Shown: piece after piece, positions 9,806 to 44,794 of the stretch
Numbering within the stretch: position 1 is the first letter of the stretch
Layout of the letters: each line of letters opens with the position of its first letter
DNA from: Dictyostelium discoideum
Taxonomy: Eukaryota
Length of the DNA stretch: 64,000 bases
Direction: 5' to 3'
Assembly: GCA_000004695.1 (NCBI GenBank)
Contig: CM000151.3
Coordinates: 4,480,001 to 4,544,000, forward strand
Notes under the pieces: generated by a model
Told to the model about the DNA's origin: nothing
The model's database searches: none
The model's input: only the letters and a program-made list of their open reading frames with translations
Translations under genes and position numbers: made by a program

Positions 9806-10493
9806 TTTAAGAAAATATAAATATGTCGTTTTTTTTTTTTATTTTCACTTTTTTTTTTTTTTTTTTTTTTTTTTTCATTCACACTTTTTTTTCATTTTAT
9901 TTTTAATTTTTTTTTTATTTTTGTTTTTATAACAGTGACCCAATTTTATTTTTCAATATGAATGTTTATAAAAATGGAGTTTTAATCTTCAACTAGAGTA
10001 TCAAACAATTGATTTTTGAGTAGCAGAACCTTTGGCTTTTGAATTGATTTCATTACCAAAAACTAACTAAATTCATAAAATAGTTTTACACTTTCAGTGA
10101 TTCTTGGGCATTAGGATTAGATTCATGGATCCTAAAAATTTCGATAGTTGCTAAATTTATCAATTACAAATATTTTTTTAAAAAAAAAAAATAAAAAAAT
10201 AAAAAAATAAAAAAATAAAATATAAAAAAGTTGGGAATAGAGGAAAAAAAAAAAAATTGGGAGGGACACAAATTTTTTTTTTTTTTTTTTTACAAACATT
10301 TTTTATTTAAAATAAAATGAAATAATAAAATAAAATTAAATTAAATTAAACTAAATCAAATCAAACCAAAACCAAAACCAAATCAAATCAAACCTAATCA
10401 TATTAAAAATATTAGTAATCTATTAATATTTTTAAATAATAAATTTTAAAAAAAAAACCTAGAAATAATATATTAGTTTTTGAAAGGGAAGGA

Positions 10494-16720: not shown

Positions 16721-18102
16721 TTAATAATTCTCATATGGAGAAGGTAATGGAAATAAAGATTCAAAAAAATTTGATATATCATTAATGATTTGATTATTTA
16801 AATAATGACTTTGAGAGTTTGGAAAAGTTTCAAATTTAAATAAATCATTTAAACAAATTGTTTTATAATGTTCTTGATTTTCAATTACAATATTTAAAGC
16901 TTCTTTATAATTTTCATTTGTTAATGCAAAGTATTGATTATTTAATTTCATATTTTTAAATTTCCTTGAATACTTCTTAACAAATTGATTATACACAAAT
17001 GGAATTTGAATATCATTTGAATTTCTGAATTTATTACTAGACGTAATTGAAAGTTCATTCTTTAAATCAAAACTTAATATTGACCAAATCTCTTTATTGA
17101 ATACTTGAATACCATGTTGTGCATTAAATCTTGACTTTGTTGAATTCCCAACTCTATCCAACACCCTATTGGTATTGACTAAAGTTTGAGTCCAAACATC
17201 TTTTCTTGATATATTCGGTGTCCAACTTGACACAATTTCATTAGTTTCAAATAAATTATGATAATATTCATTATCAAAGAAATCATCAATTTCAACTTTT
17301 TCTCTAAAAAATAAATCATCATTTGAATATAAAAAACAATTTGAAACTTGGTTTGGTAAATTCCAAAAATTCGATTCAATTGAATTCGAATTAAATGTTG
17401 GTAAATCTTTTCTAAAAAATAAAAAATTATTAATTATAAATTATAAATTATTAAAAAAAAAAAAAAAAAAAAAAAATATAAAAAAAAAAAAAGATTTACT
17501 TACTTATTTTTATAAAATTTTTCATGAAATATAAATTTAACATTATCACTATTTGATTGATTAAACCATGAAGGTATTTGATTAGCAGTTATTATATAAA
17601 TTTTATTTATCCATGGTGCATATTTTCTTACACTTCTTAATGAATATTTTAAACTACCATAATCTCTAAATCTTTGTGATTCCTCTTCATTATCATAATT
17701 TTCTTCTTCTTCTTCATCTTCTTCTTCATCTTGTTGTTTTAATTTTTTTAATTTTTCATTTTTTTGAATTTTTTCTAAATTATGATAATAAATTCTACTT
17801 TCAATATGTTTTAGATCTGAGCCGTTGACCCATGTATATATTAAATCAATATCTTCACAATATCTACTTTCTTTGAGACTATCCAAAACAGGTGTCCTAC
17901 TTTTAATTATAATTGATTTGGTTAAATCTTCATCAAATTCGTGATGATGTTGATGATGTTGTTGTTCTAATAGCTTTTTATTAAACTTTAATTTATTTTC
18001 ATTCATTAACAAATAAAAACTAAATAATACAAATAATGATAAAATAAATAAATAAACATATGAAATTTTATTTTTACAATATGTCAATTTTTTGGATATC
18101 AT
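16721..18102 (-). CDS. Stealth-family (GlcNAc-1-phosphotransferase-like) type II membrane protein of about 429 aa. Exon 1 is 18102..17504, the intron 17503..17412, exon 2 is 17411..16721.
   Basis: Exon 1 has an N-terminal signal anchor and the Stealth CR1/CR2 motifs (DLIYTWVNGSD; RFRDYGSLKYSLRSVRKYAPWINKIYIITANQIPSWF). The GTAAGT donor overlaps the apparent stop, and a ttttttag acceptor restores the frame (…KNK-K-DLPTFNSNSIESNFWNLPNQ…) into the downstream ORF with no stops. Confidence 0.8.
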
Positions 18103-19234: not shown

Positions 19235-24150
<4,916 letters not shown>

Positions 24151-27593: not shown

Positions 27594-28107
27594 ATTTAAA
27601 TAAATAATTTTATACACCTATATATTATATTATATATATATATATAAATTTATATATGAATTTGAATGCTAATAATTATAATTATTTTTTGTGGTGGAAT
27701 TTTTGTTTTTTTTTTTTTTAATTTTTTTTTTTTTTTTATTTTATTTTAAAAAAAAAAATTATAATTATTTTTTAAAAAAAAAAAAAAAAACTTATTTGGT
27801 GTTTTGTAATAAAATAATTATATATTTATATTTAAATAATTTTTTTTTCTTTTTTTTTTTTTGTTTTTGTTTTTTTATTTTTTTTTTTTTTAAAAATAAA
27901 TTAAAATTAAAAAAAAAAAAAAAAATTGAAAAATAAAAAATTAAAATATAAAAAAAAAAAAAAAAAAAAGAAACAGAATTTAGTCCTTTTTTTTTCTTTT
28001 AATGTTTCTAGTTAGTTCCTTTTTAGTAAAGTTTCGATTATTTTATTTTTTTTGTTTTTTTTTTGGTGTGTTTATTTTTATATTTTTTATTAAAAAAAAA
28101 AGATATA

Positions 28108-28216
<109 letters not shown>

Positions 28217-28644
28217 TAAAAATTTAGTTGCTTTTGAAAAAAAAAAAAAAAAAAAAAAAAAATTATATTTTAAATATTATATTTTAAGAATAGATTTGAA
28301 AAAAGTGGAAAAAATTTGAAATTAAAATTTTTTTTTTTTTTTTCTGAAAAAAAAAAATAAAAAAAAAAAAATAAAGGAAAAAAAAAAAAATAAAAATAAA
28401 AAAAAAAATTTTCGGTTGTTTTATTTAAATTATTTAATTTTTAATTTTTTTTTTTTTTTATTTTTTTTTTTTATTTTTTTTTATTTTTTTTGGAAATATA
28501 CAAATAAATTATTATTTGATATTGAACACCACTTTATCACCCCCTTAAAACCCCCACTCAATATTCACACATAAAACATTTAATTGAATTTTTGTTTTGA
28601 TGATACCAACTTAAGATCTATTATCTTTTCACCCACAATCCCCA

Positions 28645-28758: not shown

Positions 28759-28888
28759 ATGATTAGAAATTTAATTTTAAAATCTACAAAATCTCAAAAC
28801 CTTTCAAGATTTTATAAAACAAAAACTACAAATTTTAATAATATAACATTAACAACTAATAATAATAAAAAATGTATATTTTTTAAAG

Positions 28889-28924
<36 letters not shown>

Positions 28925-29952
28925 GAATTCAATATTCTACAAGTAGTAGTAACAGCACTATCAATAAAAATCAAACTAAAAAAGTTGAATCATTAAATAA
29001 AGAGACAAAGGATTCTAATGATAAATCAATTTATGGATCAATTGGCGATATTGATTTTAGTAAAAAGGAGAGTGGACCATCAAAGAATGCATTAAGCAGA
29101 GAGAAATTAAGTAAAAGTTTATTATTAATGAGAAAATCAGGTACACTTTCATCAGTTAATATGATGGCAAAGATGGAGAATGAAAATTCTACACCTGTTT
29201 ATGGATCATTATCAGCCTATGCGTTATTTGATAGCGAAGAGGAGGTGTCAGGTGACATCACACAAGAGCATTTGAAAACCAAAGTGACAGTATACAATCC
29301 AATCATAGCATTACATAAATCAAGTGCCCACATCAAGCATTTCAAACACTTCAATAAGGTATCACTAGTGGTGTACCCATTGACACCCATCGGCAGACCA
29401 CCAAGCGAGTATGACCTACCACGTGTGAATTTCAGTGGTCGTATGAGACTGCTACCATCACCTAACGCCAGTAAAGACACACAAGACATTCTAACCTACA
29501 CAAAAGCGAAAAGACTCTATTTCGAGAGACACCCAAATTCAGCAGTGGTGATGGGCGATCAGTGCGACAAGGATTACGATTTCTTCATTATGGATATCTC
29601 TGACGCCTACTATTATGAAAGAAATCAAAAATTAACTTCCATTCCAATCGAGGTTTTGAAATGTTGTTCAGCAGATCCTGTCACTATTCAAAGTAGAGAA
29701 ATTATTGAGACTGTAAACTCAAAGTACCAAGACTCGCTCTCTCTCATCGTTGAGCAATATGGTGATGTTAAATTGGATGATTGTTTCATGTATTTCGTTG
29801 ATAGTTTCGGTTTAAATTGTATAGGTAAGAAAAAAGGTATTGATGAATGGTTAGATATTCGTATACCTTTTGATTCATCTTTTGATAATTTTGAAAATTG
29901 TAAATCTGGATTATATGAAACTTTAAGATTAGTTCGTAATAAAATTTTTTAA
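28759..29952 (+). CDS. Hypothetical protein, 397 aa, with a basic N-terminus that could be a mitochondrial presequence
   Basis: Genuine ATG. The N-terminus MIRNLILKSTKSQNLSRFYKTKTT is basic with no acidic residues. The central part (29220..29560) is unusually GC-rich for this genome. I recognised no domain. Confidence 0.6.
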
Positions 29953-33888: not shown

Positions 33889-36194
<2,306 letters not shown>

Positions 36195-36210
<16 letters not shown>

Positions 36211-36375
36211 CGTAGTGAATTTTATTATTTAATTTCACTACAGTAGCGTAGTGAAAAAAAAAAATCACTGACCTTAAATTTTTTTTTTTTTCAAAAAACA
36301 AATAAAGTTTATTAAATTGAAATTTTATTTTTTGTTTTAATTATTATTTTATTTATTTTTATTATAATTATTGTT

Positions 36376-36414
<39 letters not shown>

Positions 36415-38671
36415 CAATTTTTTTTTTTAAATTTTTTTCAATTTTTATTTGTTTATTAAATTGTAATTTTATTTTTTGTTTTAATTATTATTTTATTTAT
36501 TATTATTGTTAATTTTTTTTTTTTTTCAATTTTTTTTTTTTTAATTTATTTTTATTAATTTATTTTTATTAACTCCCTGAGTTGTTCAATTGCTTGATTT
36601 ACCATATCACTGTAAACACTGCACACAATTGAATTTTTTCTAGCTTTGTTACCTCTGGTGCATTTGATGTTTTTGCATTTTCCTTTGTATACAAAAAAGT
36701 CCAAATATAATTCGTTTTCTATTACAGTTTTTACACAATGTTGGTGAAATTGTTTTGATTTTAATTCTAATGCTTCTAACATCATATTTGGATTTTTAAC
36801 GATTAAAGCATCACCACTATTTACATATAGTACTTTGGCTGCTTTTTCGAGGAATTTAGTCAAATTTTCCTCTGAATCTAACTATTCTTCATTGCCATAT
36901 TCAATGGCTAAATTTCTTAAGAGTTTTATCGAATCTATTAATTCTTCGATCATTCTTTTTTTTTGAAATTTTTTTTTATTTTGTTTTTTCAATTTTTTTT
37001 TTTTATTTTGTTTTTTCAATTTTTTTTAAGTTTTATTTTTTTTTATTTTTTTTTGAAGGCTATTGATTCCATCTTCCAAAAATTCAAGTTTATAAAGTTG
37101 TTTAGTGTCTTCCTGTATTACCTTATGAATTTTACACAAAATCAATATTTTCTATTAGAATTAAATATAAAATTTGTTAATTATTACTGTTTCATATATT
37201 ATTAATCTTTATGTTTTAATTACTTACATTATTTTTTTTAATTTCTAGAAAGAGTACAGTATCACCAACTTTCAATCCCTTTGGTGGTTTTGAATTCCAT
37301 TGATTTTGGTAACTTGTGAGATTTTCAAGAATAATAGCTGTTCTTTCTTCTTTTGAAACATCTGAAACACCAATTGATTGAGAGTCTTGTTCTGATTGAA
37401 CATTAATAAACAAAGGAACAATACCAACAGCTTGAGATGGTGTCATTTTAATTGTTCTTGTTTTTGTATTATTGTAATCATACAAAGCTTGTTTTAATAG
37501 TTCAGAAAGAGACCTAGAAGTACCATCAAGAAAACTAAAATTTATTTATAAATGATTAATTAATAAACATATCGATAATTTATATTGTTCACAATATCAT
37601 ACTCTTGTTGTTTTAATTTTGAGATCCTCTCCTTGATAGTTCGATTCAATCTTTCTACCATACCTTGAGTTGTTGGTGTACGAGGAGCTCCATGTGCTGA
37701 CTTGGAGCCTGGAAAAAGTTTTAGGAATTCTTTTTGGACTTTGTTTTTAAATTCACGTCCATTATCGCAGTGCCATACTTTCACAGGTTTGCCAAAGTAC
37801 GTGAGAGCCAAAAAATTGTATATGGGAACTGTTCTCTTTGTTGTCAAACATCTAAAAAATAAATGATAATTAAAATAAAAAAAGAAAACTAATAAATTAA
37901 TAAATAAAAAATAAATACCTTCCAGTAGCAAATTTTGTAAAAGAATCTATGCATAGAATAATGTAAACAACATCGGTGTCGTACGGTTGTACAGAGTCAT
38001 ATTGGATAAGATCATCTAGTTTAGTTAGTATCTTTTCATTATCATCATCGTATGTAACTTTTTCTTTATGTTCACCTTTAATTGATGTTAAATCATAAAC
38101 CAATCTTGAGTATTCCTCGGTATCTACAATTGGAGCAAAATCCTTTGTTATACCTATTAATTTATTTAAATTATTAAAAGAGTTTTAATATAAAAGTTAC
38201 AAAACATCATATAAAAATGATTGATACCAAACCTTTTATTCTATTTCGTTGGCAAATGTCACACGTATCTACTGCATCAGATACAAAAGAATACAATCCC
38301 ATATTATAATATTTAGTCTTGTAGTTCCCATAGGTTGCATCTCTTCCTATATGACCTTTATGCATTTCTTCCCAGAGTGATACCATTCTATAATCATTAA
38401 TTACTTCTAAACACACTTCTTTTGATATATTTCTATCTCCGCCACAATTCATGACTTTTTTTTCAATTCTAAATAATTTTTCTTTTCTGTTTCTGTTTTT
38501 TATTGGTCAGAATTTAAAAAATGATTGTGTTATTGTAAGGAAAAATATTTACTCATCATGTAAAAATTTATAATTTTTATGTTTAGTATTTTCAAAATTA
38601 TTATCTTCAATAAATTTTAAATAATTTATAATTTCATTTATTTTATCTTGTTTCATTTTGGGAAAATGAAA

Positions 38672-38706
<35 letters not shown>

Positions 38707-38961
38707 TGTTGGGGAAAAAAAAAAAAAGTTTTGGCCCAAAAAAAAAAAAAAAAATAAAATAAAAAAAAAAAAAAATAAAATAAAAAAAAAAAAAAATAAA
38801 AAAACTTATATAGAACTAATAATCAAATAAAAGATAATAATTTAATAAACTTTATTTGTTTTTTGAAAAAAAAAAAATTTAGGGTCAGTGATTTTTTTTT
38901 TTCACTACGCTACTGTAGTGAAATTAAATAATAAAATTCACTACGCTACTGTAGTGAAATT
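36195..38961 (-). mobile_element. DNA transposon of about 2.77 kb with roughly 78-bp terminal inverted repeats, encoding an integrase-like (rve/DDE) transposase. It is a TDD/Ginger-type element like Dictyostelium Tdd-4/Tdd-5.
   Basis: The left end (36195..36272) is aatttcactacagtagcgtagtgaattttattatttaatttcactacagtagcgtagtgaaaaaaaaaaatcactgacc. The right end (38883..38961) is its exact reverse complement. The internal minus-strand ORFs encode an H2C2 Zn-finger, a DDE core and a C-terminal domain. About 80-bp subterminal direct repeats lie at 36293..36380 and 36437..36520. Confidence 0.85.
36555..38656 (-). CDS. Transposase of the retroviral-integrase type (H2C2 zinc finger + DDE catalytic core), interrupted by several short spliceosomal introns. 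The exon coordinates are approximate.
   Basis: The ATG at 38656 gives MKQDKINEIINYLKFIEDNNFENTKHKNYKFLHD. A ga|GTAAAT donor and tttag| acceptor join it in frame to IEKKVMNCGGDRNISKEVCLEVINDYRMVSLWEEMHKGHIGRDATYGNYKTKYYNMGLYSFVSDAVDTCDICQRNRIKG (HHCC). The next exons give …IQYDSVQPYDTDVVYIILCIDSFTKFATGR and …WHCDNGREFKNK…HGAPRTPTTQGMVERLNRTIKE (D,D,E). A further exon gives …KPPKGLKVGDTVLFLEIKK. Confidence 0.7.
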
Positions 38962-38968
38962 TTATTGA

Positions 38969-41351
38969 AAATTCCCTACAACAATCATTATTCATGGTAA
39001 ACAATTTAGAAATGATTACTTTTATTCAAAATTTGGTGATCAAGCAAATTTAAATGTATTTTCAAATGGTATGTTTAAAAAACTATTTAAATTTAATTTT
39101 TTATATTATTTTTTTAAACTATTAAATTAATATTCTGGTTCTAATTTTTTTTTTTTTTTTTACTTAATTTTTTATAGATTGTTTTGAATTTCCACCAAGA
39201 GTTTCAAATTTAACTTTATTATCTAGTAATAGCGTTACATTAAACTCTAATCAAACTATTGGATGGGAAATTGTAATTGATAGTGGTGGTGGTATTAAAA
39301 TTAGTTATGTATTTATACATGTAATTTCAAATTTAGATAAAAAAGGATACACATTTGAATTCTATCCAAACTCTACCTCATGGGAAACCACAATTGGAAT
39401 TGCTCTATCACCAGAAACAACACCATCACAAATATTTAAAATTTATAATGCAACTATTATTGACGAAAGAGGAATTAGATCGGACCATATTGATAGTTTT
39501 AAAGTTGATGAAATTTTTTCAAATCAAAGTCCAATTTATCCAATTTCAATTTCACCATTTTATTTATTTGATCTTAGTTTATTTAGCATAACAGTTAATT
39601 CACCATTCATTACTGAATCTGTTCCACCAACAATTACACTTGTAACCCTACCATTTGAAAATGTAGATGATTTTTTACAATATTCAATTTTCTTTCAATT
39701 AGTGTCAACTGATAATGTTGGTATATTAAAAAGCCATATACCACAAGTTTATTTATCGCATTCATCAAACTATGGAGATTTACAAATTTTCCAATGTAAT
39801 ACAGCTATTAATGATACGTCTGAAACAACTTGTAATTATTATGTTACTTGTAAAGTTGAATATGGTTATGGTATTCAAAACCCTGTATCTGTTTTAGTTT
39901 ATGGTGTTGTTGATACTAGTTTCAATGTTGCAAGCTATAGTAGTTTAAGTGAATCCCAAACCTTTGATTTTAATGGTCTTTCCAATAAAAAAACACCTTC
40001 AATTTCAAGTTGGACACCATTAACACCATATAATAATAAATTAACAATTTTTGGTAGAAATTTCCCAACATCAGGTGGAAGTGCTTATTTATATTATACA
40101 GATAGTGATATTGATAATTTAGTAACTTTGAAATTTATTCATTCATCATCTGTAATGGCAGTTTTAGAAATTGGACAAGGTTTAAAACCATTTGTAGTTT
40201 ATACTCAAAATTCAAATAATGAAAAATCTAATAAAGTTGAAATTCATTATTTAGGAATTCCAACATCTTCTTCATCCTCATCTTCATCATCAGATGATGA
40301 TTCAACATTACCACCAGTTTTATGTTTTGATAATTGTGGTGGAACATCAAGAGGTACTTGTATTCCAAATGTTGGATGTAATTGTAAATCACCATATAGT
40401 GGTATAAATTGTCTTTCTGAAACAATTAAAATTCCAAAACCTCAAACAAATACAACATCACCAGATTCAAGAAATGAATTCCCTATTAGTGGTTCAGATA
40501 TTAAACTAAATACAATCATTTCAATTGTAGCATTAAGAGAATTAGATTTTCAAGGTAAACAGGTTAATATTCATTATTTTGATAGTTGGAATTTTACAAC
40601 AATATCTCAAACCAATTTCACATATAGATCACCAATTTTAAAAAACAATCAACATGTTTCAAATATATCAGTAGCAATGGAATGGCATGAACAATCTACA
40701 ACTATTACATTTGCAAAACAAAATCTCACAATTAATCCATCAACTTTGAAATATTATATTTCATTAGATAAATACCCATTTGCATCATCATTAAATACAC
40801 TTGATTTAATCATTAAATCAATGTTTAAAAGTTCACAAACTGATGATGTATGTGGCAGTAAAGGATTTTCATTAAATGATGGAAATGATTATATGACATT
40901 ACAAATTGGAACATACTCATTTGAAGGTAAATTTATAAAAAAAGCAATTATCAATGGCAATAGAATTGTAACAATAAATAATAAATTATTAAATGAAAAT
41001 CAACTAAATAGTAATTCAACTATAACTAAAGAAAAAGATTCATCAAATCAACTTTCATCCTTTATCTCAATTGAAATACCTCATTATGATTCAAATGTAT
41101 TATTAGATCCAAGTTTTTCAGTTTTATTAGATTCAAATGAATCATATAAAAACTCTGAAAATTCAATTTGTACTTCAAAAAAATCCTCAAAACTTACTAC
41201 CGCTCAAATAATTGCTATTGTTATTGTTTCTGTAGTTTTTGTAATAATTCTAGCTCTCTTTATAATCGTTAAATTTTCAAAATCTGATAAATTTTTATCT
41301 ATAAGAATTTTCTATTATAAATTATTTAAACGATTTAAGAAAAAGTATTAA
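38969..41351 (+). CDS. EGF-like domain / single-pass transmembrane protein, the C-terminal half of the gene split by the transposon. Exons are 38969..39068 and 39178..41351.
   Basis: The open frame begins right after a TGA at 38966-38968, next to the right TIR. It reads FPTTIIIHGKQFRNDYFYSKFGDQANLNVFSN, then a g|GTATGT donor and ttttatag| acceptor lead into …CFEFPPRVSNLTLL… An EGF-like Cys pattern follows (CFDNCGGTSRGTCIPNVGCNCKSPYSGINC), then a C-terminal TM helix (IIAIVIVSVVFVIILALFIIV) and a short cytoplasmic tail. There is no signal peptide or ATG of its own; the listed 'M' at 39702 is a GTG. Confidence 0.55.
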
Positions 41352-42176
41352 ATTTATTTTTTAAAAAATAATATTAATTGTAAAATAAAGTTTAAAAAAT
41401 AGTTTTTATTAAATAGTTAAAGATTAATGTTTTTTTTTATACCTTTATTTTAATTTTTATTTATTATTTTTATTATAATAATCAGTAAATTTTTGAAAAC
41501 TATTGAATTTTTGGAATATAAATCCACCATTTAATTAATTACTACCAAGTGGTTAAACTTGGATGAAAATCCATTAGTAATTTTATTAATTAAATAATCT
41601 TTCAAAACTGGTAATTTTGAAATAGATAATTTTTTCCCAATCGTATTCGTTGTATGGGCTATCTGTTGATAATAACCAATGAAAAAGATGAAAGCAATCT
41701 TCTTTGATAGCACACGCTAATAATTCTTGTAATAATGTTTTTAAAAAACTCTTTACCCAATTCCTTAATGATTCTATGTGAAAGAAGATATTTAAAAGTT
41801 ATTAAATCAACACCATCATCATTATTAATAATTCTTTTTAAAAAAACTGAATAAATTAAATTTGCATGATTATCTGTAAACTTTTCACAGGTTATTATTT
41901 TTTCAAGCATATCAATTCTTCTATTCTTAATTGAATGATATATTAAACTTTCAAAAAAATTGTTGAAGGGAATTTTTTTTGAAATTTCGCTTTTTAAACG
42001 GCAGTGAATTTTTACACTAAAATACACTGTTTATGCATGGTGTAAAAATTCACTAAATTTTTTTTTTTTTATAATTAAATTAAAAAACAATTTATTTAAT
42101 CAGAAAAATAAAAAACCAATTTTATTCAGTTATTTGCTTGTTATTTATTTTTTTATAACAAAAAAATTTAGTTTGC

Positions 42177-42235
<59 letters not shown>

Positions 42236-42327
42236 CAATTATTTTTTTCAATTTTTTTTTTTATCGATTGTTTTCATTTTTGGGGAATAAAATAAAATTG
42301 TTCGATAAAAAAAAAATTGAAAAAAAT

Positions 42328-42370
<43 letters not shown>

Positions 42371-42569
42371 GGTTTATATTTTAATTATGGTATTCATTAT
42401 TGTTTATATAATTATTTTTAGTATTTATATTATTTATAATTATAAACTCGAGTTAATAGAATTATTATTATTATTATTATTTAAATGTGGGTCAACTATA
42501 ATTAGTGTCTTAGTTCACTTATTTAATATTAACTTATTTTTGTGTCTTCGTTACATAAAAAAAAAAATG

Positions 42570-42603
<34 letters not shown>

Positions 42604-42699
42604 AAAAAAAAAATAAAAAAAAAAAGAAAAATAAAAAAAAAAAGAAAAATAAAAAATAAAAAAAAAAATAAAAAAAATAAAAAAAAAATAAAAAAAAAA

Positions 42700-42824
42700 G
42701 AGGGGTACCCCCTAAAAAAAAAGAGGGTACCCCCCTAAAAAAAATAATAATTTTAATAATAATAATAATAATAATAATAAAAATGAAAATTAATATTTAA
42801 ATAAAAAAAAGAGGGTACCCCCCT
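42700..42824. repeat. Three copies of a GC-rich near-palindrome, (A)GAGGGGTACCCCCCT with core GGGGTACCCC, inside the TIR element. The copies are at 42700..42713, 42722..42736 and 42811..42824.
   Basis: Directly visible. The core is self-complementary and contains GGTACC. Each copy is embedded in poly-A. Confidence 0.85.
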
Positions 42825-43082
42825 AAAAAATGTTGGAATTTAATTAAATTTATTTTTTATTTTTTTTATTTTTTAATTTTATTTTTTTTATTTTTTAATT
42901 TAAAAAATGTTGATATAAAACAAAAAAATTTTTTCAAAAAAAACATTTCAAATTATTAACAAATTATATTATTATACTTTAATGTATGTGTACAATTTTA
43001 AAAATTTAAAATTTGTTCTATTTTTATCAATCATATCATGTATATTTATTAATTAAATCTCATATATTCTTATTCCCAGCAA

Positions 43083-43223
43083 ATGACATCAGGTGGAATC
43101 GTACAACCAGGCCAAAATCTCTCACAACGTCCAATAAACGGCCAATATGGCTGGGGACCAGCAGCAGGAAGTGCCGCAAATCCACGTGGCGATCTCCGTG
43201 GTTACACTTACAATATTAGATAG
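43083..43223 (+). other. GC-rich (about 55% GC) 46-codon ORF inside the TIR element; function unknown, possibly structural RNA/DNA rather than protein
   Basis: atgacatcaggtggaatcgtacaaccaggccaaaatctctcacaacgtccaataaacggccaatatggctggggaccagcagcaggaagtgccgcaaatccacgtggcgatctccgtggttacacttacaatattagatag. Its composition is strikingly unlike the surrounding sequence. Confidence 0.2.
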
Positions 43224-43791
43224 TTTCGCTGTCTATTTCTGAATATTCAGAAATCTTTGTTTAATGCCAAAAATAGTAGATATCTATTATATTTTCTCAT
43301 TTTATAAATCTGATAAGATCTGTCTTAAATAAAAAAAATCAAATTTTTTTATAAATTAAAAAAAATCATTTCCGCAAATCCGCAAAAAATAGCGGGAATT
43401 AAATTATTTATTGTTTTTTAAATTGTTTTTTTTGCGTGATATGAAATGAACAGCAAATGAACAACGTGTGAGTTGTATTAGCTGATGGTAAATTGTTGTT
43501 AATTTATAAAAAAAAAAAAAAAATTTTAGTGAATTTTTACACTACGCATAAACAGTGTATTTTAGTGTAAAAATTCACTGCCGTTTAGAAAGCGAAATTT
43601 CAAAAAAAATTCCCTACAACAAAATCATTTAATTGCTTTTGGTTGTATTCTGGGAATAAACAACCAATTGTTTCAATGATTGTTTGGGATTTATTGGTTT
43701 TAAATATATCAATTAATAAATAAGATTTGTGTAAATTTAATTGATAAATTGGGTTTGTATGGATTTAATTTTTTTTCAAAAATACTATCAA

Positions 43792-44301
43792 TCATACTAT
43801 TATTAAAGGTATTGATACCAATACCAACCATACTATTATTAAAGATATTGATACCAATCGTACTATGGTTAAACGTATTGATACATTAATATTATTACCA
43901 ATTGTATTTAATAATAATTCTAAAAATTCTAAATCATTGGAACTTAAAACTTTTTCAATGAGATATTTAATTGTTTTAGTTTCAATATTAATGAGTTTAA
44001 TGAATGATGTTAAATTTGATTTAAAATTATTCTTTTCTGAAAAGAAATCATATAATGTTTCATCTAAATCTCTAATGAATACTAATATTTGTTTTTGTGA
44101 TGTTTCTTTAAATTTTAATAAACTTGAAATATATAATTCACTGGAAATTGGTAAAAGTTTTAATTTTAAACAATTTAAAAATGATTTTGAATTTGGATTG
44201 AATTCATTTACACTTGATAGTTTATCAATGAATTTTGATATCTTTTCACTATCTTGAATTGTTGTTGAACAATCTTGGAAACAATCTTTTTTTTTGATCA
44301 C
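43792..44301 (-). CDS. Hypothetical ORF next to the right TIR of the 1.67-kb element. It has no ATG, since the listed M is a GTG after a TAG. It may be a remnant of a gene disrupted by the insertion.
   Basis: The translation (…DCSTTIQDSEKISKFIDKLSSVNEFNPNSKSFLNCLKLKLLPISSELYISSLLKFKETSQKQILVFIRDLDETLYDFFSEKNNFKSNLTSFIKLINIETKTIKYLIEKVLSSNDLEFLELLLNTIGNN) has protein-like composition but no start. The 3' end is encoded by roughly 30-bp tandem repeats (43790..43880). Confidence 0.25.
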   Translation of the reverse strand: MIKKKDCFQDCSTTIQDSEKISKFIDKLSSVNEFNPNSKSFLNCLKLKLLPISSELYISSLLKFKETSQKQILVFIRDLDETLYDFFSEKNNFKSNLTSFIKLINIETKTIKYLIEKVLSSNDLEFLELLLNTIGNNINVSIRLTIVRLVSISLIIVWLVLVSIPLIIV

Positions 44302-44794
44302 CTATTTCTTAAAAAGTTTTTTTTTTTTTTTTTTTTATCCCTAATACTAAAATTATAATTTGATGGTCAAATTATAATTTTTACGAGTTCATTTTTTTTT
44401 TTTAGATATTTATTTAATAATTGATTATTTGATTTATTTATTTTTTTAAATTTATTATTTAGTTTTTAATAAAAAAAAAAAATAAAAAATAATTAGAAAC
44501 CAAATAATCAAATATTTATTTAATAAAAAAGAACTTAATTTATAAAACTTGTGCCAATAAAAAAAAAAAAAAAAAAAAAAAAAATAGGCACATAAAAAAA
44601 ATGCACTAAAAATAAAAAAAAAAAAAAAAAAATTAAAAAAACGAAAAAAAAAAAAACGAAGAAAAGTCCCACAAACTAGACCAATGATTGTTTTGTACTT
44701 TAGAACGAATCATAACAACCAAACAATTCGACAATAAGTAGGTAATTCTTATCTATAGAATGTTTTCTACGGAATCATTCAATACATAAAATTA

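Follow-up and report, generated by a model that had tools for sequence, protein, structure and literature searches.

A transposase-less element of Dictyostelium discoideum with Tdd/Ginger2-type ends and a GC-rich small open reading frame: a probable non-autonomous relative of integrase-type transposons

Introduction

To which transposon lineage may a short element with long inverted ends and no transposase gene belong, and what do the sequences of high guanine-plus-cytosine (GC) content that it carries represent? These questions are raised by a stretch of 64,000 nucleotides (nt) of the Dictyostelium discoideum AX4 genome (GenBank assembly GCA_000004695.1, contig CM000151.3, positions 4,480,001 to 4,544,000 of the forward strand, taken to be part of chromosome 2), hereafter the window, whose own numbering is used throughout. 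The window contains a 1,661-bp element with terminal inverted repeats (TIRs) at 41961-43621, designated element 2, as well as an integrase-bearing neighbour at ~36190-38983, designated element 1. Element 2 is very likely a non-autonomous DNA transposon of the integrase-type (H2C2 + DDE) Tdd/Ginger2 lineage, as indicated by its ends and its 5' leader, both of which are shared with elements that encode integrase-like proteins.

Boundaries, inverted ends and target duplication of element 2

The inverted arms of element 2 extend over 41960-42086 and 43496-43622, are 127 nt each and 92% complementary, and contain 5 mismatches within the first ~112 nt of the aligned ends. A core of 28 nt within the TIR has exactly two occurrences in the window, one on each strand, with 0 expected. 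None of the open reading frames (ORFs) inside element 2 yielded a Pfam hit above noise, and no transposase domain was found. An earlier note on this DNA, made from the sequence alone, had described near-perfect inverted ends bounding a segment that lacks a transposase, and this description holds for the element of 1,661 bp. Its coordinates required a small correction: the TIR element is real, but the left terminus lies at 41961, one base inside the 41960 that had been given. This terminus was placed using two loci reached via homologues of the element 1 transposase, namely L007, from D. discoideum assembly GCA_054859355.1, and L008, from D. cf. discoideum (GCA_054859205.1). Since the same end sequence is preceded by different left flanks in these loci (...TTTAC|TGTTGTAGGG in L007 and ...ATATCT|TGTTGTAGGG in L008), the termini are TGTTG at 41961 and CAACA at 43621.

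As delimited by the inverted-end alignment and by a comparison of five ends, the left TIR (41961-42086, plus strand) begins with TGTTGAAGGGAATTTT, while the right TIR (43496-43621, minus strand) finishes with ...AAAATTCCCTACAACA. The left TIR also contains an internal inverted motif pair, AGTGAATTTTTACAC at 42003-42017 and GTGTAAAAATTCACT at 42040-42054, and the hairpin formed by this pair has a folding z-score (z) of -4.4. The length of the TIRs falls within the range of roughly 50-300 bp of Ginger2/Tdd elements. The TGTTG ends of element 2 also fit the TGTNR rule that applies to the termini of Ginger2 elements and Gypsy long terminal repeats (LTRs) (PMC2836005).

Element 2 is flanked on both sides by AAAT (41957-41960 on the left and 43622-43625 on the right), the chance of a 4-mer match at such spacing being 1.4-1.7%. 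When the element is removed with one copy of this target-site duplication (TSD), i.e. 1661+4 = 1665 nt, the two parts of a minus-strand ORF come together in frame (...EYNQKQLND|FFESLIYHS...). The alternative GTTG...CAAC ends, with a 5-bp duplication (AAATT versus AAAAT), include one mismatch, and the removal of the corresponding 1664 nt does not restore the frame. The single insertion of element 2 favours a 4-bp target duplication. In this respect, AAAT agrees with most Ginger2 elements, for which 4-bp duplications have been reported, but differs from the 5 bp of TDD-4 and TDD-5 (PMC2836005). The target of this single insertion, AAAAAAAT|CATTT, is AT-rich but differs from RTATAY, the preferred AT-rich target of Ginger2 (PMC2836005).

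Kinship with integrase-type Tdd/Ginger2 elements

The evidence that carries the assignment of element 2 to this lineage is the similarity of its 5' part to sequences preceding integrase-like genes. Nucleotides 1-314 of element 2 are 82% identical to positions 9644-9969 of L007, and nucleotides 1-302 are 81% identical to positions 9667-9971 of L008. The matched sequence is situated directly upstream of genes encoding the integrase-like proteins P0055 (Pfam Integrase_H2C2) in L007 and P0046 (Pfam rve) in L008, and element 2 can therefore be regarded as having kept the ends and the complete 5' leader of such an element while losing the gene. In L007, the homology spans the TIR, a conserved GTTTGCGCCA motif and a T-rich leader, and ends ~25-30 nt before the transposase ATG. 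The corresponding 5' subterminal leader of element 2 (42087-42271, plus strand), which includes the GTTTGCGCCA motif and a T56 run, thus has its homologue in the untranslated leader of autonomous Tdd-like elements. All five ends compared, i.e. both ends of element 2 and those of L007, L008 and element 1, have identical terminal 16 nt.

Element 1 (36190-38983, minus strand) is a damaged Tdd-like copy with Integrase_H2C2 and rve pieces, recognized by domain hits and by its shared end. Its intron-interrupted minus-strand protein matches Integrase_H2C2 with 36.7 bits (cut-off 25.5) and rve/rve_3 weakly, and is 98% identical to AX4 DDB_G0292352, annotated as an 'Integrase catalytic domain' protein. 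The right end of element 1 has the same terminal TGTTGTAGGGAATTTT as element 2, in addition to scattered common blocks out to ~110 nt. With its termini common to element 1 and its 5' ~310 nt matched in two other genomes, element 2 has ends that belong to a repeated family, a point on which the earlier note had made its interpretation depend. The parent family of element 2 is probably a sister of the family of element 1 rather than the same one, because P0055 shares only 58% identity with the protein of element 1.

Several motifs and neighbours of these elements may be recorded here. A GTT(T/C)GCGCCA motif in the 5' leader is common to element 2 (42172-42180), L007 (~9863-9872) and L008 (~9874-9883), while GCGGGAA and TTTCCGC motifs are present in the 3' subterminal region of element 2 (43370-43400). 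By their sequence, both the leader motif and the 3' motifs look E2F-like. The ORFs of Tdd-4 and Tdd-5 are reportedly subject to strong de-repression in a mutant of rblA (Rb), with one Tdd-5 copy containing a consensus E2F site (PMC3386910). In addition, LTR-retrotransposon genes (RVT_1, RNase H, Integrase_H2C2, rve) adjoin the truncated Tdd-like elements at 11099-14556 in L007 and 17343-20815 in L008, in keeping with reports that transposons of D. discoideum cluster.

Interior of element 2 and its proposed origin

Beyond the leader, neither element 1 nor the sequence available for L007 and L008 is significantly similar to the interior of element 2 (42367-43500). The point at which homology to the autonomous leader stops is occupied by an A/T foldback (42202-42365) with arms at 42202-42280 and 42289-42365. 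The right arm of this foldback repeats the leader in inverted orientation (T-run, CAATTATTTTTTTCAATTTTTTTTTTTATCGA), and as RNA the foldback has a folding z of -7.1. It is followed by a plus-strand poly(A)-rich tract (42556-42699), three GC palindromes, a GC-rich ORF and a plus-strand 3' subterminal region (43224-43495) containing an 18-nt palindrome, TTTCTGAATATTCAGAAA, and CCGC/GCGG motifs, for which no homologue was found. A candidate third internal TIR remnant at 43224-43433 (z=4.9 against L008) was dropped, as its z was about 1 against element 2's own TIR with dinucleotide shuffles.

These features may be explained by descent from an autonomous parent whose transposase would have combined an H2C2 zinc finger with a DDE (rve) core. 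Of this parent, element 2 would have retained the two TIRs (~110-126 nt) and the 5' untranslated leader in full, and would have lost the coding region at a breakpoint ~25-30 nt ahead of the start codon, a position marked by the foldback. The foldback suggests that the coding region may have been deleted by a strand-switch or hairpin event during abortive repair or replication, the interior being replaced by unrelated sequence, i.e. the poly-A, the three GC palindromes and the small ORF. Element 2 would then be moved by cut-and-paste transposition, with an integrase-like DDE transposase supplied in trans by a related autonomous element. Recognition by such a transposase would presumably involve the invariant terminal 16 nt, TGTTG.AGGGAATTTT, together with the inverted AGTGAATTTT/AAATTCACT motifs; cleavage at the TG...CA ends and integration staggered by 4 bp would then leave the AAAT duplication. 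Both the mobilization in trans and the binding sites are proposed by analogy with the established behaviour of Ginger2 and retroviral-type integrases.

The GC island and its open reading frame

The GC content of element 2 reaches 55% at 43100-43199, compared to a window average of 22.8%. The claim of the earlier note that a stretch of about 55% GC forms a 46-codon ORF was confirmed: the island coincides with an ORF (MTSGG...YNIR) of 46 codons plus a stop at 43083-43223 on the plus strand, annotated in AX4 as a hypothetical protein. Its presence makes the label 'ORF-less', which had been applied to element 2, inappropriate. The GC bases are distributed unevenly over the three codon positions (28/46, 27/46 and 13/46, or 0.61, 0.59 and 0.28; Fisher p=0.0006), and the synonymous-codon log-likelihood, calculated against the window's own large ORFs, is positive (+0.17) for the annotated frame alone, all five others being negative. 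The high GC content of the island results from amino-acid composition, as the ORF encodes nine Gly residues and four each of Pro, Ala, Arg, Gln and Asn, with codons including CCA, GCA, CGT and GGT/GGA.

The peptide MTSGGIVQPGQNLSQRPINGQYGWGPAAGSAANPRGDLRGYTYNIR exactly matches the AX4 'hypothetical protein DDB_G0269070 / DDB_G0294605 / Q54ZF4', and GenBank lists the 46-residue product under four or more identical AX4 accessions, distributed over three contigs. The accession of the copy in the window is probably EAL70122.1, which is numbered next to EAL70123.1, encoded at 28759-29952. Among 5.8 billion proteins, the 46-residue ORF product matched only itself; for nine further ORFs of element 2 and the flanking AX4-specific segment, no exact match was present in the protein collection. 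A HMMER scan of 1.84 billion representatives returned hits with expectation values (E) of 1e-8 to 8e-4, all to repeat units of long bacterial-type proteins. These values sum 3-6 matched stretches per long repeat protein. In P0002, the one hit checked pairwise, each of five repeat units scored ~25 bits over 34 residues with 32-35% identity, a level that lacks significance on its own. The similarity of the ORF to long repeat proteins is hence treated as compositional.

The ORF has the orientation of the lost transposase gene, and its stop is located 398 nt from the 3' end of element 2, comparable to the ~360 nt that separate the stop of the last exon of element 1 from the end of that element; furthermore, it is preceded by a splice-acceptor-like ...TTATTCCCAG. 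Due to this orientation, stop distance and splice-acceptor-like sequence, the ORF could possibly be a relic terminal exon of the parent transposase gene. The GC island appears to be an ORF with host-type codon use, either a passenger micro-gene or such a relic exon, and its expression is presumed.

The GC palindromes

The earlier note had reported three GC-rich palindromes embedded in poly-A at 42700-42824, and both their positions and their sequence were verified. The copy at 42700-42713 reads GAGGGGTACCCCCT, and those at 42723-42736 and 42811-42824 both read GAGGGTACCCCCCT. The first copy includes a perfect 12-nt palindrome, AGGGGTACCCCT, while the second and third are identical across 28 nt. 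The repeated unit has the form A8-10 GAGGG(G)TACCCCC(C)T A6-9 and is situated 260-380 nt upstream of the 46-codon ORF. The motif accounts for 7 strand-matches, as opposed to 0.2 expected, and occurs nowhere else in the 64 kb; it was also absent from all eight of the fetched loci (8/8). Short hairpins or mutual pairing of the copies are possible in this block, which has a folding z of -3.2. Our best guess, in which we have low confidence, is that the palindromes constitute a binding site for a dimeric factor, located in the promoter of the ORF or used in transposition.

A bolder combination of these features, in which a functional Gly/Pro/Ala/Arg-rich micro-gene is carried as cargo and the palindromes serve as regulatory or transposition sites, is unlikely. 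If true, it would describe a transposase-less element that persists via its own small protein, e.g. one that modulates the Tdd transposase or host silencing, and would imply that element 2 has recently spread or been kept in the AX4 lineage.

Alternative explanations

The most serious alternative is that element 2 belongs to a catalogued thug (thug-S or thug-T) or DDT-S family, as the earlier note had guessed, and hence to a class distinct from Tdd with its own mobilizing enzyme. Tdd, DDT and thug are the three groups of D. discoideum DNA transposons (PMC5633606), and the 1.66-kb size, TIRs and missing transposase of element 2 would suit short families of the thug/DDT-S kind. Nevertheless, the demonstrable kinship of element 2 is with integrase-type elements. 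An identity with thug-S was rejected, as the 5p and 3p arms of the thug-S microRNA (miRNA) miRNA_can_D3 (PMC4894637) are absent from both strands of the window even with up to 4 substitutions. The part of the guess that stands is thus that element 2 is a non-autonomous TIR element of a repeated family, and what remains of the thug or DDT-S assignment is possible but doubtful; a thug-T or DDT-S label is in part a matter of naming and could be compatible with the Tdd/Ginger2 assignment. By contrast, it is extremely improbable that element 2 is not mobile at all and represents a local inverted duplication around ordinary intergenic DNA. One complete copy has been seen directly and the region is rich in low-complexity inverted A/T repeats, as such a duplication would allow, but the same ends recur on element 1 and in two other genomes, where they lie at unrelated loci, the TG...CA integrase termini are accompanied by a perfect 4-bp TSD, and at least four annotated copies of the ORF are distributed over three contigs. 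Membership of the Tdd/Ginger2 lineage is itself weakened by several points. The L007 and L008 relatives are truncated autonomous copies without a right TIR, leaving the 3' half of element 2 with no parent to be compared with. One full genomic copy of element 2 has been seen, and its copy number is estimated from the annotated ORF. The four other strains offer no empty site for element 2, as the whole surrounding ~3 kb is missing from them. The flanking ORF whose frame is restored by excision, about 400 codons long, has no homologue among 5.8 billion proteins and no Pfam domain, which makes the frame test weak, and the apparent TSD is 4 bp, as against the 5 bp reported for TDD-4 and TDD-5.

For the GC island, two explanations compete with a resident ORF. 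Isolated intergenic GC-rich islands in the D. discoideum genome are often RNA genes, and the sharp delimitation of the block would be in line with a non-coding RNA gene or a structured cis-element, such as the small RNA or transposase-recognition hairpin proposed in the earlier note. However, no Rfam match was found over the block either at the gathering threshold or at E<=10, no tRNA was detected, and the block folds no better than shuffled sequence on either strand (z=+0.80 and +0.22). Together with the strong 3-base periodicity and the host-like codon use in one frame only, these results make an RNA gene very improbable. The capture of a host or foreign gene fragment (Pack-type or horizontal) would account for the GC content and could be suggested by the ORF's GC values of about 0.6 at the first and second codon positions, compared to 0.26-0.46 and 0.20-0.41 in the genes of the window, as well as by the formally significant HMMER hits. 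These hits are, however, sums over repeats, the ~25 bits of single P0002 units being insignificant in a set of 1.84 billion proteins; the search for a parent gene in D. discoideum turned up only the ORF itself; and third-position GC is low, as in resident genes. A degenerate GQYGWGPAAG pattern likewise gave no match in DNA scans of metagenome, prokaryote-genome and viral collections, nor did the TIR. Capture is therefore rather improbable. The earlier note had also considered that the GC-rich block might be part of a known transposon ORF, a possibility that found no support, since the ORF has no similarity to any fetched Tdd-like protein or locus.

Comparison with known elements

The closest known systems are in accordance with the assignment of element 2 to the Tdd/Ginger2 lineage. 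With TDD-4 and TDD-5, element 2 has in common long TIRs, TGTNR termini, a short TSD and an AT-rich host, and its relatives with common ends and leader encode an intron-interrupted, H2C2 + DDE integrase-like protein. In contrast to these elements, it lacks a transposase, is 1.66 kb rather than about 3.8 kb in length and has an apparent TSD of 4 rather than 5 bp. Ginger2-1N1_NV of Nematostella (Bao et al. 2010, Table 2) is likewise non-autonomous, has kept integrase-type Ginger2 ends and belongs to the 4-bp-TSD group, but is 252 bp long, resembles a miniature inverted-repeat transposable element and is present in >50 copies, whereas element 2, with its length of 1.66 kb and low copy number (at least 4), harbours an ORF, palindromes and a foldback. 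Thug-S is also a short multicopy D. discoideum TIR element with no recognizable transposase, and thug-S has been reported with Tdd-4 homology in one gene model; apart from its miRNA hairpin sequences, which are absent from element 2, it differs in having been described with an intron-containing gene, while element 2 has a single 46-codon ORF. Elements of the Pack-MULE type resemble element 2 as non-autonomous TIR elements holding a short coding-like ORF unrelated to transposition, but represent another superfamily, and no parental gene was found for the ORF of element 2.

Element 2 itself is probably an ordinary repeat that has already been catalogued, in a protist genome that ranks among the best annotated, because AX4 repeats have been exhaustively inventoried and the ORF has been annotated four times, and non-autonomous Ginger2/Tdd elements such as Ginger2-1N1_NV are a well-established kind. 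Via a common TIR and 5' leader, a D. discoideum element that is short and has no transposase is thereby tied directly to autonomous elements of the integrase type (Tdd/Ginger2), and its insertion suggests that the branch to which it belongs generates duplications of 4 bp instead of 5 bp.

Strain polymorphism and surroundings of the elements

Comparison with the orthologous loci of four other sequenced strains (L002, L003, L004 and L005) revealed insertion polymorphism of both elements. Element 1 is missing from all four, and L002 and L003 have a clean empty site, ...CCATTTTTAATCATTATTC... (~17037-17130 and ~17025-17120, respectively). From this empty site it follows that Tdd-type elements have moved since AX4 and the other strains diverged, and that the group was recently active. 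In AX4, element 1 interrupts a coding exon of a gene for 1,379 aa, which has Pfam DUF7035/DUF7034/ComC_SSD domains in the other strains and is intact in L002 and L003 and uninterrupted in L004 (1,377 aa) and L005 (1,391 aa). The disruption of this gene is relevant to users of AX4 as a reference. The left end of element 1 in AX4 lacks the terminal ~24-27 nt (TGTTGTAGGGAATTTTCAATAAAA), and AAT microhomology is present at the junction, which is consistent with a small deletion after insertion.

Element 2 is enclosed by an AX4-specific segment of ~3.0 kb (41578-44587), absent from the four other strains, that also contains the minus-strand ORF interrupted by element 2. This segment has no TIRs at its ends and terminates in A26 on the plus strand. 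Its junction in L002 is CCATTAG|GTACAAAA, and AX4 has TAG on both sides. Within the segment, three tandem 30-36-nt repeats (TATCAATCATACTATTATTAAAGGTATTGATACCAA) are present at 43786-43887, the minus strand of which encodes repeats of the ...NNSMVGIGINTF... type. The intergenic spacer at the insertion point of the segment is rearranged between L003 (~19596-19700) and L002 (~19620-19680), with the AATCCATTAGGT segment inverted in L003 and CCACCATTTACTACC duplicated, which suggests an unstable palindromic spot (CCAAGTGATTAAACTTGG).

Elsewhere in the window, inverted matches of 130-180 nt with 74-94% identity link 22185-23811, 28046-28259 and 34918-35131, and one of the three is also 96% identical to positions 4465-4630 of L002. 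These matches are probably simple-sequence or coding repeats common to genes. ORFs of the window that are identical to annotated AX4 proteins include those for triose-phosphate isomerase, DDB_G0274461, DDB_G0274653, DDB_G0274919 and the product of an actin gene.

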